From: a virus
Taxonomy: Duplodnaviria; Caudoviricetes
DNA length: 54,147 bases
Direction: 5' to 3' (one strand)
IMG/VR virus record: IMGVR_UViG_3300043418_000125
Location: 1 to 54,147 of that record
Shown: positions 25,895 through 49,147 of the stretch, piece by piece
Layout: each line of letters begins with the position of its first letter
Numbering within the stretch: position 1 is the first letter of the stretch
The notes under the pieces: model-generated
The model's database searches: none
What the model saw: only the letters and a program-made list of their open reading frames with translations
Told to the model about the DNA's origin: nothing
Position numbers and translations under genes: made by a program

Positions 25895-26357
25895 GGCGCT
25901 TCACCCCCTTGAATGCAACTCGGTCGAAGCGGCTCATGGGAGACAGGTCGAATGTCTCAGGCTGATTCCCGATGCCAAGCTCAGGGATGCCGAGGTACCC
26001 GCTGTGCCATGTGAGCTGGAGGCCATGCTGTTTGATGACGTCCCACATCCACAGGTAGCCGATGGTGGGCGTGAATGGCTTGACGTAGCCGCCATTGGGG
26101 GCTTGGCGAACGACGGCCTTGCTGACCTCGCTCACGCGCTGGTGCGGCACCTTGTCGTGGTACACAAGGCAGACACTCAGGTCTCGCACCCATCGCCAGT
26201 CGAAGGTGCTGATGCGGTCGGCAGGGTCGAGCAGGACTTGGAAGTTCCCGTCAACCAGTGGGCCAACGAGGCTGACGAACACAATCTCGTTCGGGCGCTT
26301 GCCCTGCATCCGCATGTCCCAAATCTCTTGGGCGCCGTATGGCAGTGTCGGGTTCAT
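25887..26357 (-). CDS. hypothetical protein between initiator and helicase
   Basis: 156 aa; coupled on both sides; position suggests a loader/accessory role (inference). Confidence 0.65.
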   Translation of the reverse strand: MNPTLPYGAQEIWDMRMQGKRPNEIVFVSLVGPLVDGNFQVLLDPADRISTFDWRWVRDLSVCLVYHDKVPHQRVSEVSKAVVRQAPNGGYVKPFTPTIGYLWMWDVIKQHGLQLTWHSGYLGIPELGIGNQPETFDLSPMSRFDRVAFKGVKRHE

Positions 26358-27052
26358 AGCAGACCCCCGAAGTGGTCTTCTGCTTGGGCGCCGCCATCAC
26401 CTGTCTCGTCTGTCCAGCGTTGCTGGTTCAGCCAGGTGCTTGGGTACTGGATGAACTGTCCGTCATCCTTCGTCCACTCACGGGATTGCTTGGCACGTTG
26501 CAGTCCGGCCATGATGGCCTGCATCAACGCCTCGTCTGGCGCGATACGCAGCCATGCCTTCAACGCCTCTGGCTTTGCTACCTTCTTGGGGTAAGCAGCC
26601 CAGAAAATATCGAAGCCCTCGTCCGCGACCTTAGCCTTTGGCTTAGGTTGGTTCTTGGTTCTTGGTTCTTGGTTCTTGGTTGGGATACGATCCGCATCTG
26701 ATTTCGTATCTGAAACCACATCTGATTTCGTATCTGATTTCGCAGCCCAACGTGATCTGTTGGCGTTACGAGCCGAGTCTGATTTCGCAGCGTACTTGGA
26801 CAGCTCCAAGTCGCAGCGCTCATTGCGCCAGCCGTCAGGCGTCAGCACAAAAAACTCCTTGAGGACGGCCTCGACCTCTGCCGTTTGATCGCGCATGGCA
26901 ATCAGACGGGCGACCTGGCCAACGTCAGCGGGGAATGGGGATTCTTCTGTGTAGTACGCATCGAGCAACCGGCGATAAGCCAAGTCCTCGAGCAGAGACA
27001 GGTGTCGGGTCTTCGTCAGGTAATCCCTGACATGAAACGGGTAGTGGTACAT
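26354..27052 (-). CDS. replication initiator, YdaU/DUF1376-like (232 aa from MYHYPF)
   Basis: MYHYPFHVRDY...HLSLLEDLAYRRLLD.YY N-domain; internal iteron linker; FDIFWAAYPKKVAK...YPSTWLNQQRW C-domain. Confidence 0.88.
   Translation of the reverse strand: MYHYPFHVRDYLTKTRHLSLLEDLAYRRLLDAYYTEESPFPADVGQVARLIAMRDQTAEVEAVLKEFFVLTPDGWRNERCDLELSKYAAKSDSARNANRSRWAAKSDTKSDVVSDTKSDADRIPTKNQEPRTKNQPKPKAKVADEGFDIFWAAYPKKVAKPEALKAWLRIAPDEALMQAIMAGLQRAKQSREWTKDDGQFIQYPSTWLNQQRWTDETGDGGAQAEDHFGGLL
26649..26787. repeat. replication origin signature inside the initiator gene
   Basis: five TGGTT(CT) heptamers at 26649-26681, GGGAT, ATCTGATTTCG at 26696, 26720, 26732 and variants at 26708, 26777 (12-bp phasing). 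Confidence 0.8.
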
Positions 27053-27077
27053 CAATGCCTTTCGCGCCTTTCCTCTA

Positions 27078-27165
27078 AAACCCCGAAGGGGCCGGAAGGG
27101 GGCTACGAAAGGACTCGAAAGCTCGCCCCCGTTCAGTTCTCGGAGCGACCAAGAACCTATCCGGC
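27078..27165 (-). ncRNA. candidate structured RNA in the 5' leader of the initiator gene
   Basis: GCCGGA..TCCGGC closing stem enclosing GTTCTTGG-TCGCT-CCGAGAAC and GGGGGC..GCCCCC, followed by a CCCC-TTCG-GGG hairpin. Confidence 0.6.
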
Positions 27166-27172
27166 AATCGCA

Positions 27173-27201
27173 AGTGTCCTTGTTTCTTGTCACATAGTCA
27201 A
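27173..27201 (-). promoter_or_regulatory. promoter for the replication operon
   Basis: TTGACT-17 bp-GACACT; -10 overlapped by ACAAGGACACTTGC (27170-27183). Confidence 0.6.
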
Positions 27202-27249
27202 TAGCATATCCTTGTACTCTTGTCGGGTATTGCAGGGGTTCGTATTGGA

Positions 27250-27278
27250 TTGACTAGAAAACAAGGCTCTTGTAGTCT
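27250..27278 (+). promoter_or_regulatory. promoter for the repressor gene, with an operator in the spacer
   Basis: TTGACT-17 bp-TAGTCT; palindrome ACAAG-GCT-CTTGT at 27261-27273. Confidence 0.65.
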
Positions 27279-27311
27279 TCGGCTGCACACCACAAGGCAA
27301 AGGTCTTTTCA

Positions 27312-27953
27312 ATGGCAGAACTAGGACACAGAATTAAACAAGTGCTTGCGGAGAAGGGTCTCACGCAGGCCCAACTGGCGAGGCTTGTCGGTGTCAAACA
27401 GCAGACCATCAGCTACATCTGTGCGCCGGATAGCCCCGCCTCCACTTCGCGGTACGCCAACAAAATTGCTGAGGTGCTTGGCGTCAACCCGTCTTGGTTG
27501 CAAGACGGTCAGGGGGACAGGCATGAACCAACGGTGAGGATTGAACTTGAGGGAGTTGAGCTATCAGTCAGACGGGTGGCATTCCTACGGCACGAGGACG
27601 TCATCCCATTCGTGAATGGCCAAGAGATCAAAGGAAAGAAAATGGGTTTGATGACAGACGCAGACGTCAGCGGGTTGTCGTTTGCGATTGAGATTGAAGG
27701 CGACAGCATGAGGCCGCTGTTCCGTCCAGGTGATCGTGTCGTGATTGATGCCAACATCAAGCCGGAGCCTGGCGACTTCGTGGTCGCCCAGTCTGACGGC
27801 GCCTTGACGTTCAGGAAATTCCGATCCCGAGGTGATACCCAGTTCGAGCTGGTACCCCTTAATGACGACTGGCCGGTGATTCGCTCTGAGTCAACACTTG
27901 TCAAGGTCATTGGAGTCATGGCTGAACACCGCAGCTACCGACGAAAGACATAA
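27312..27953 (+). CDS. cI: CI-like repressor (434-type HTH plus S24-like C-domain)
   Basis: LTQAQLARLVGVKQQTISYI HTH; EGDSMRP...GDRVVID...PGDFVVA...LVPLNDDWP. Confidence 0.92.
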   Translation: MAELGHRIKQVLAEKGLTQAQLARLVGVKQQTISYICAPDSPASTSRYANKIAEVLGVNPSWLQDGQGDRHEPTVRIELEGVELSVRRVAFLRHEDVIPFVNGQEIKGKKMGLMTDADVSGLSFAIEIEGDSMRPLFRPGDRVVIDANIKPEPGDFVVAQSDGALTFRKFRSRGDTQFELVPLNDDWPVIRSESTLVKVIGVMAEHRSYRRKT

Positions 27954-48653: not shown

Positions 48654-49147
48654 TTGTGCAGCGCCTTCATTGCGTCGGTTTTGTCCTTGCTGCCCTGGCT
48701 GGAGCCAAAGTAGAAGCCAAGGACTTGGGTGGCCGCGCTGGTGATGAAGCCGAGCGCGTAGATGATGATGTTTTCTTGCGAGTCGGGGATGTTCGCGAAG
48801 ATGAGCAAGCCGATCAAAAAGAAGGCCAAGCCCACGGTGCCGAGCGCCAGAATGGGTGGGGTCAGCTTCTCAAGGATATGGGCGTTCGCGCTGGTGGCGA
48901 TGGCGGTGTGCGCGGCGCGCGCGCTGTCGCGGTCGGCGTTCTCGAGCTTGAGCTTCTCAAGGTCAATCTCAGCCAGCTTGGCGGCAGCTTCGGGATCGCG
49001 TGCCACAGCGGTGGCCACAGCCTCAACCGTGTCAGCCACACCGAGCTTGTCAGCCATTGCCTTGACGGCCGCGCCACCCAACGGGCCAGCCACCACGGTG
49101 GCCAGCGCGGGTGCTGCGCTCTTCAACAAATCAAGTAGCTTGTCCAT
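48650..49147 (-). CDS. holin-like membrane protein (165 aa from MDKLLD)
   Basis: APALATVVAGPLGG...DRDSAR...two TMs...FYFGSS.GSKDK; adjacent to the endolysin. Confidence 0.75.
   Translation of the reverse strand: MDKLLDLLKSAAPALATVVAGPLGGAAVKAMADKLGVADTVEAVATAVARDPEAAAKLAEIDLEKLKLENADRDSARAAHTAIATSANAHILEKLTPPILALGTVGLAFFLIGLLIFANIPDSQENIIIYALGFITSAATQVLGFYFGSSQGSKDKTDAMKALHK

Follow-up and report, generated by a model that had tools for sequence, protein, structure and literature searches.

The stretch of DNA analysed here, referred to as the window, is a complete phage genome of 54,147 bp with direct terminal repeats, in which a CI-like repressor gene and a replication gene of the DUF1376 type are arranged divergently around a gap of 259 bp. 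The two genes and the promoter elements between them are:

27312-27953, plus strand: CI-like repressor gene (HTH_3 and Peptidase_S24 by Pfam; PHROG 4, 'transcriptional repressor').
27196-27201, minus strand: hexamer TTGACT, -35 element of the rightward early promoter as read from the sequence, with a 17-nt spacer to the -10 element.
27173-27178, minus strand: hexamer GACACT, -10 element as read from the sequence, overlapped by an operator-like palindrome at 27170-27183.
26354-27052, minus strand: DUF1376 replication initiator or primosomal-type gene, the first of the rightward operon (Pfam DUF1376, 85 bits; PHROG 9327, 'primosomal protein', 184.6 bits).

The DUF1376 gene, which in the PHROG profile search also carries the label 'replication initiation protein', starts with the ATG at 27052 (minus strand); its N-terminal start, MYHYPFHV, is kept in the related loci L001-L003, and it is followed by the gene for a 156-aa unknown protein and by that for a DnaB-like helicase. 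The original prediction had described a gap of about 260 bp that lacks a helix-turn-helix ORF, in agreement with the 259 bp measured here and with the lack of a Pfam match for either small ORF located there (27190-27312 and 27075-27173). Likewise, the first nine rightward ORFs had no match to a Cro-like or HTH family among the PHROGs (E <= 0.001). Two repeats lie inside the DUF1376 gene, at 26648-26681 and 26696-26742: one has a unit of 7 nt, present perfectly in 4.9 copies, the other a 12-nt unit in 3.9 copies with 71% matches. In lambda the origin iterons lie within the initiator gene O, and the repeats found here could be origin iterons in the same position or merely encode a low-complexity linker; the RNA contigs described below have joints and loose ends at them. 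Elsewhere the phage carries a tRNA-Pro gene with the anticodon AGG (49007-49096, minus strand).

Between the promoter and the ribosome binding site (RBS) of the initiator gene the minus strand can form a three-way junction (3WJ) that spans 27165-27091. The elements of this leader are, in the direction of transcription:

27160-27165, minus strand: 5' strand of helix P1, GCCGGA, pairing with UCCGGC at 27091-27096.
27158-27159, minus strand: junction UA, preceding P2.
27135-27157, minus strand: hairpin P2, 9 bp in the minimum free energy (MFE) structure, formed by GGUUCUUGG (27157-27149) and CCGAGAACU (27143-27135) around the loop UCGCU (27144-27148).
27131-27134, minus strand: junction J2/3, GAAC (family consensus YGAAA, Rfam consensus CGAAAA), a conserved block in alignments A5 and A8.
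27098-27130, minus strand: helix P3, 6 bp, in which GGGGGC (27130-27125) pairs with GCCCCC (27103-27098), and its 21-nt loop L3 (27104-27124).
27091-27097, minus strand: junction U (27097) and 3' strand of P1, UCCGGC (from fold, alignment and sequence).
27077-27090, minus strand: mini-hairpin P4, CCC-UUCG-GGG (27090-27081), and UUUU (27080-27077), specific to the phage subtype.
27067-27075, minus strand: site 1, GAGGAAAGG, the first complement of L3 ('decoy'), with which L3 can form a duplex through UCCUUUCG.
27058-27065, minus strand: site 2, GCGAAAGG, the second complement of L3, over the Shine-Dalgarno region and 5 nt before the ATG.

The promoter TTGACT-17-GACACT, the 3WJ and the UUCG hairpin are thus all present on the minus strand where they had been predicted. 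P2 is indeed a hairpin with the loop UCGCU, but its length had to be revised, as it extends by one G-U pair to 9 bp. L3 contains two copies of CUUUCG.

The -10 element lies 7 nt from the start of P1, and from this promoter spacing the RNA should start at or beside P1, in the region of about position 27166. The same -35/17-nt/-10 arrangement is found at equal distance from P1 in L003, L022, L077-L083, L109 and L118. A consensus scan of 26800-27500 called neither a promoter nor a terminator (0 of each); the TTGACT-17-GACACT promoter was missed because it is too weak for such a scan. The palindrome overlapping the -10 element is of the ACAAG-N4-CTTGT type with one mismatch in the window; palindromes of this type also lie upstream of P1 in L003, L022, L081, L109 and L118, and a similar one with a 3-nt spacer is located near 27264-27276.

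We then analysed the folding of the leader. For the 96-nt core the MFE structure is exactly the 3WJ (-39.8 kcal/mol); with a z-score of just -1.79 and an equally good fold in 9 of 200 shuffled sequences, however, the single-sequence fold is not significant, and a 141-nt stretch gives a different fold. The decision between a chance fold and a real element therefore rests on covariation in homologues. When the nascent RNA is considered, the 3WJ is the MFE structure at lengths of 76-100 nt, whereas from 110 nt on the MFE structure pairs L3 and the 3' strand of P3 with the RBS region. In the 127-nt leader this fold reaches -49.8 kcal/mol as compared to -45.2 kcal/mol for the best fold that retains the 3WJ (pseudoknots left out), i.e. 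the two folds are about 4.6 kcal/mol apart. A tRNA-like reading of the structure was dropped, as ARAGORN detected no tRNA at the element or in locus L020.

A blastn search of 50,697 phage records with the intergenic sequence as query gave no match. L003, one of the closest DUF1376 loci, nevertheless carries the same element with compensatory changes in P2 and a P1 that is longer by 1 bp. Searches with a motif pattern yielded 16 loci in viral contigs, five of which are real (L021, L022, L026, L027, L031), 12 loci in metagenomes, 11 of which were confirmed by covariance model R1, and five loci in genomes, four of them real (Desulfosarcina widdelii, a Metabacillus, a Desulfobacter MAG and a Deltaproteobacteria MAG). 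The same pattern with a spacing of 5 N instead of 4 served as background measure and returned 15 loci, all unrelated; the strict canonical pattern was found in only two viral contigs. Two loci, L047 and L051, were discarded as chance matches of the longer pattern. The P2 loop GGUCGCUCC was rejected as a family signature: it reflects the bias of selection by the pattern, and the P2 hairpins of members detected independently of it differ in loop and length.

Covariance model R2, which is free of the pattern constraint, detected one or two copies in each of the four genomes and matched 12 of the 151 genomes of the order of one member genome (E <= 1e-4). L001 and L002 gave weak matches (17.8 and 21.3 bits with R2, 14.4 and 18.2 bits with model R3) and are possible relatives by sequence. 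In four cultured DUF1376 phages (P19250A, MR13, UAM5 and Vibrio 1.003.O) R2 found nothing, neither near the gene nor in the whole records, and none of the models R1, R2 and R3 detected a second copy in the 54-kb window. In a protein-anchored approach, which took the 80 best DUF1376 loci in IMG/VR, the element was present in 16, always on the strand of the gene and ending about 22-35 nt before it.

Alignment A5 comprises 28 distinct sequences, and 93.2% of the cells in its helices are paired, with double changes in 18 of the 21 pairs. None of 500 shuffles reached any of these measures, and slid partners paired in 38-57%. All three helices contribute: P1 is paired in 97.6% of the cells (double changes in five of six pairs), P2 in 89% (seven of nine) and P3 in 93.9% (six of six). 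Alignment A8, which is protein-anchored and was assembled without any RNA pattern in the selection (15 distinct sequences), is paired in 91.8% with a covariation of 0.625 vs 0.21, and 14 of its pairs show double changes, a number reached by 82 of 500 shuffles. These values are to be read with two points in mind: covariance models were used to fit alignments A3-A8, which biases them in favour of the structure, and several members are close kin. G-U pairs are frequent (e.g. GU:7 and GU:10 in A5), which fixes the strand of the RNA as that of the downstream gene. The original prediction had called for a structured RNA in the initiator leader, and the covariation among homologues bears this out; judged by this comparison of sequences, the structured leader RNA is real and conserved.

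Features present throughout the family are the inner P1 pairs, the UAG, the YGAA(A), a GC-rich P3 and the single U before the 3' strand of P1 (P1'). P2, by contrast, varies from 3 to 9 bp and has various loops. A hairpin composed of a C-run, a short loop and a G-run follows P1' in L003, L022 and all 11 strong DUF1376-linked matches. The P2 loops of many canonical members are palindromic (GAGCUC, UGAUCA/GAUC, GUGCAC, UAGCUA; L061, L062, L064, L066, L067, L058), which would allow loop-loop dimers in those members; the loop of the window, UCGCU, is not palindromic. In one member (L036, 9775-9888) P3 is enlarged by an insertion of 48 nt, and no ORF lies within 140 nt.

With these data we could weigh the view that no RNA element exists and that the region is a chance fold, a translated extension of the initiator starting at the GTG at 27193, or a structure of single-stranded DNA or of an origin. 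The modest z-score of -1.79, a frame that is open from 27193 in the window and the possible iteron repeats nearby in the gene would be compatible with it. The extension of 47 codons, which had been named as a potential true N-terminus, is not kept in the relatives; the same frame contains three stops in L003 and two in L022. Covariation in three helices, strand-specific G-U pairs, coverage of the leader in an RNA library and the constant distance to start codons all speak against the remaining variants, and we consider it hardly conceivable that there is no RNA element at this position.

To identify the family we subjected 18 loci (17 Desulfobacterales genome loci and the metagenome locus L043) to cmscan and obtained matches to the Rfam family int-alpA (RF02996), eight of the 18 loci lying above its gathering score of 35.8 bits (37.6-57.1 bits) and three below. 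With the window itself the RF02996 model gave no match, neither at the gathering score (whole window) nor at E <= 10 (501 nt, whole record and 111 nt). We therefore turned to model R3, which contains only the eight threshold-passing sequences; it matched the window at 27076-27168 on the minus strand with 29.7 bits (E 1.2e-5), its sole match there, although R2, the model used to align its sequences, had itself included the window element. R3 also found L022, L021, L040 and L003. As R3 detects it together with other phage-type members, we file the element as a divergent int-alpA subtype; joined through intermediate models, it appears to be distantly related to the curated family and expanded relative to it. 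The novelty that the original prediction had attached to the RNA is thereby lost, even though the RF02996 model is blind to it.

The elements share the plan of the Rfam consensus, P1-UAG-P2-CGAAAA-P3-CU-P1', i.e. a 3WJ with UAG, YGAAA and U junctions, for which the window has UA(G), GAAC and U. They further have in common a CC-containing P3 loop (CCuU in int-alpA) with a trailing purine site (AAGGG) complementary to it, and the setting in a mobile element. Differences concern the lengths of P1 (8 bp in int-alpA vs 6 bp in the window) and P2 (4 vs 9 bp) and the P3 loop, which has about 9 nt in int-alpA but 21 nt with the duplicated CUUUCG in the window. Moreover, the U-rich linker of int-alpA is replaced by the extra CCC-UUCG-GGG hairpin, and instead of lying between int and alpA the window element, part of a complete phage, is flanked by a CI-type repressor gene and a DUF1376 replication operon. 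The int-alpA family was reportedly described in the survey of 224 motifs published by Weinberg et al. in 2017. The term 'alpA' does not occur in the main text of the 2017 motif survey, the accessible portions of the literature that names int-alpA report no function, and our literature search on DUF1376 with an RNA motif and on RF02996 returned nothing on function.

The island members are located near integrase, AlpA-like and large primase genes. In the island loci L065, L054, L053 and L063 the copies have tRNA genes nearby (within 0.3-1.4 kb), which is consistent with integrative elements that target tRNA genes. In three Desulfobacterales islands sub-threshold matches to the Rfam antisense RNA HPnc0260 (gathering score 59 bits) occur about 200-300 nt from the int-alpA element (L067, 1184-1312, 55.7 bits; L068, 1756-1905, 45.1 bits; L064, 1702-1851, 44.5 bits).

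Next we turned to the relation between the element and the gene behind it. A start codon follows P1' within 21-46 nt in 24 of the 28 members (four of these starts having been set by hand), while the other four have no ORF within 140 nt. In the 24 members with a start codon site 1 is found 7-22 nt after P1', and in the relatives site 2 covers the Shine-Dalgarno region, with 2-13 nt between its end and the start codon. For the window, the bipartite duplex of L3 with sites 1 and 2 is predicted to have -17.3 kcal/mol. Pairing of L3 with its own downstream region is more favourable (-8.9 kcal/mol) than with the downstream regions of other members (-7.56 ± 0.32 kcal/mol; 0 of 5000 permutations), and also surpasses pairing with the upstream flank (-5.4 kcal/mol). 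A second set gave -10.84 kcal/mol for own vs -8.3 ± 0.52 kcal/mol for permuted pairs (0 of 5000), kinship among the members inflating both permutation tests. CU-rich loops and purine-rich RBS regions pair in part by composition alone. Whole loops are swapped with matching changes at both sites, for instance in L095, L150, L092, L060 and L055, and loop and sites change together as in CCUGA with UCAGGA, CCCGG with CCGGG and CGGGAG, CCCUUG with CAAGGG and GAAGGGA, UUCGUUA with GUAACGA and UAACGU, and twice CAGACC with GGGUCU.

In metatranscriptome X3 a contig of 3367 nt with a depth of 116 covers the leader including P4 and the initiator gene, continues beyond 26000 and ends at 27157 without a loose end. 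Within the repressor region coverage is limited to 27670-27947, at a depth of 12. X3 is a single study and an assembled contig, in which the P1 5' strand is missing, true ends and strand are not displayed and the gap at 27158-27669 carries no weight; X14, X16 and X20 contributed short pieces of low depth only, and the DNA runs cover the whole stretch. These data give a hint of a strong rightward transcript that starts near P1 and reads through P4. In X16, a second RNA library containing a 95-99% relative, a thin contig (27169-27402, depth 4.6) ends just upstream of P1.

A phage RNA that pairs with RBS regions need not act in cis. The C4 RNA of P1 and P7 and the CI RNA of P4 are leader RNAs that pair with RBS-region sites in trans and hold an early or immunity operon down. 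By analogy, transcription might stop at P4 and UUUU, or the leader might be excised, giving an immunity sRNA of about 90 nt whose free L3 pairs with RBS regions in trans, including those of a superinfecting phage. Such an sRNA would agree with the classification of RF02996 as 'Gene; sRNA' in Rfam and the U-run that its consensus has after P1', with several copies per genome, and with the two target sites on the same transcript, which resemble the a2/b2 or seqA/seqC logic. A U-run directly follows P1' in eight of the 28 members, and the window has the hairpin with UUUU, but the run is absent from the other 20, and termination is thus not a general feature. The terminator scan of the window was empty, and the RNA contig continues through P4 into the gene. 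Nearly every copy, moreover, is followed at 21-46 nt by a start codon, and the RBS there matches the loop of that same copy, an arrangement that fits action in cis. A scan of the window for other trans targets of L3 gave the antisense strand and scattered matches only and was uninformative. The Rfam C4 model (RF01695) did not match at E <= 10. The C4-like character put forward in the original prediction is hence reduced to an analogy: an RNA at the head of an operon with loops complementary to sites on the same transcript, one of them at the RBS, is a working likeness, whereas the fold differs and no sign of RNase P processing or of action in trans was observed here. Taken together, an sRNA acting in trans appears unlikely to us.

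The position directly behind an early promoter is also that of the put RNAs of the lambdoid-type phage HK022, cis elements with a two-hairpin fold that act on RNA polymerase. A processive antitermination RNA of this kind would suit a core kept across phyla, which could reflect a universal target such as RNA polymerase. The element, however, forms a closed 3WJ instead of two hairpins, occurs once in the 54-kb genome with no copy behind the leftward genes, and is followed by no called terminator (26800-27500); the put family was not seen among the Rfam matches. As antitermination would in addition leave the covariation of loop and RBS unexplained, we regard it as very improbable.

The evidence thus points to a cis-regulatory RNA controlling initiator expression, as originally predicted, since the complementarity of L3 and the RBS co-varies and the X3 contig traverses the leader. 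We judge, on sequence grounds and with moderate confidence, that the leader is probably a translational throttle or switch acting in cis on the DUF1376 initiator, and a divergent member of int-alpA. According to this model the element would be the 5' leader of the rightward early (replication) transcript and would fold co-transcriptionally into the 3WJ, of which GGA-UAG, YGAA and U-UCC form the conserved core. L3, exposed and rich in pyrimidines, could then pair with either of two purine-rich downstream sites, site 1 (27075-27067) serving as decoy and pairing with site 2 (27065-27058) occluding the Shine-Dalgarno sequence and RBS of the initiator gene. From their complementarity we infer that L3:site 2 pairing lowers translation. 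Translation of the initiator would in this way be throttled or switched and, by polarity, perhaps that of the helicase operon too.

An anti-Shine-Dalgarno role alone would need just a hairpin, and the strongly conserved 3WJ goes beyond what the cis-throttle model calls for. One refinement, compatible with that model, is a sensor RNA, i.e. a riboswitch or protein-binding operator in which a ligand or protein bound at the junction decides between decoy and RBS. The junction (UAG, YGAA, U and the inner GGA:UCC pairs) is near-invariant beside freely co-varying stems, and its core is shared across Proteobacteria-type phages, Desulfobacterales and a Metabacillus genome. The mutually exclusive pairing of one loop with two partners is reminiscent of an expression platform, and the two folds of the window leader, about 4.6 kcal/mol apart, would suit it as well. 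On the other hand, the downstream genes have no common function, which is atypical for metabolite riboswitches, no Rfam riboswitch class matched and no ligand or protein candidate emerged, and for the time being we deem a sensor function a rather doubtful addition to the throttle.

Finally, we asked how the element relates to Cro and the lysis-lysogeny switch. A CI-type repressor is encoded opposite the leader in the window as well as in L003 and L022. For nine of the 11 strong DUF1376-linked matches (all except L079 and L083) we determined the upstream neighbour, which is of the CI type in L081, L109 and L118 and partially so in L086, a 257-260-aa unknown protein in L077, L078, L080 and L082, and a 73-aa ORF without Pfam match in L085. 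A cro gene between the upstream neighbour and the leader was found in none of these 12 loci (the window, L003, L022 and the nine neighbours), and an arrangement lacking cro is shared by the strong members of this clade. The weaker, canonical-like matches are located behind a gene on the same strand, and two of these genes are Cro-like (L002, P22_Cro, 41.7 bits; L150, 29.1 bits, just below the cut-off). Island and phage copies of the element head unrelated genes (DUF1376, HNH, DUF7487, an integrase fragment and many unknowns). Since weak relatives follow Cro-like genes and the family heads unrelated genes, the element is not tied to the absence of Cro. In lambda, cro is the first position behind the repressor-controlled rightward promoter, and the element occupies this first position in the window; unlike Cro, though, it is an untranslated RNA with no evident way to repress the promoter of the repressor. 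The replacement of the Cro/CII layer suggested in the original prediction is not supported by these data. It is a speculative and quite improbable proposal that in a cro-less clade the int-alpA-type leader might form a two-state part of the lysis-lysogeny switch, in which a host signal or protein sensed at the junction would shift L3 between decoy and RBS so that commitment to replication would be made at initiator translation, without Cro.

int-alpA is an orphan family of Rfam. What is new here is a subtype beyond the reach of the curated model, together with its context at the head of a replication operon in complete temperate phages, directly opposite the repressor gene, and the phage and island copies jointly suggest a concrete mechanism in which two partners, the RBS being one, would compete for a single loop. 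If the cis-acting throttle is correct, many mobile elements would use one portable promoter-leader cassette that holds potentially harmful early genes, such as those of initiators and nucleases, at low translation, and annotation pipelines would need a broader int-alpA model.
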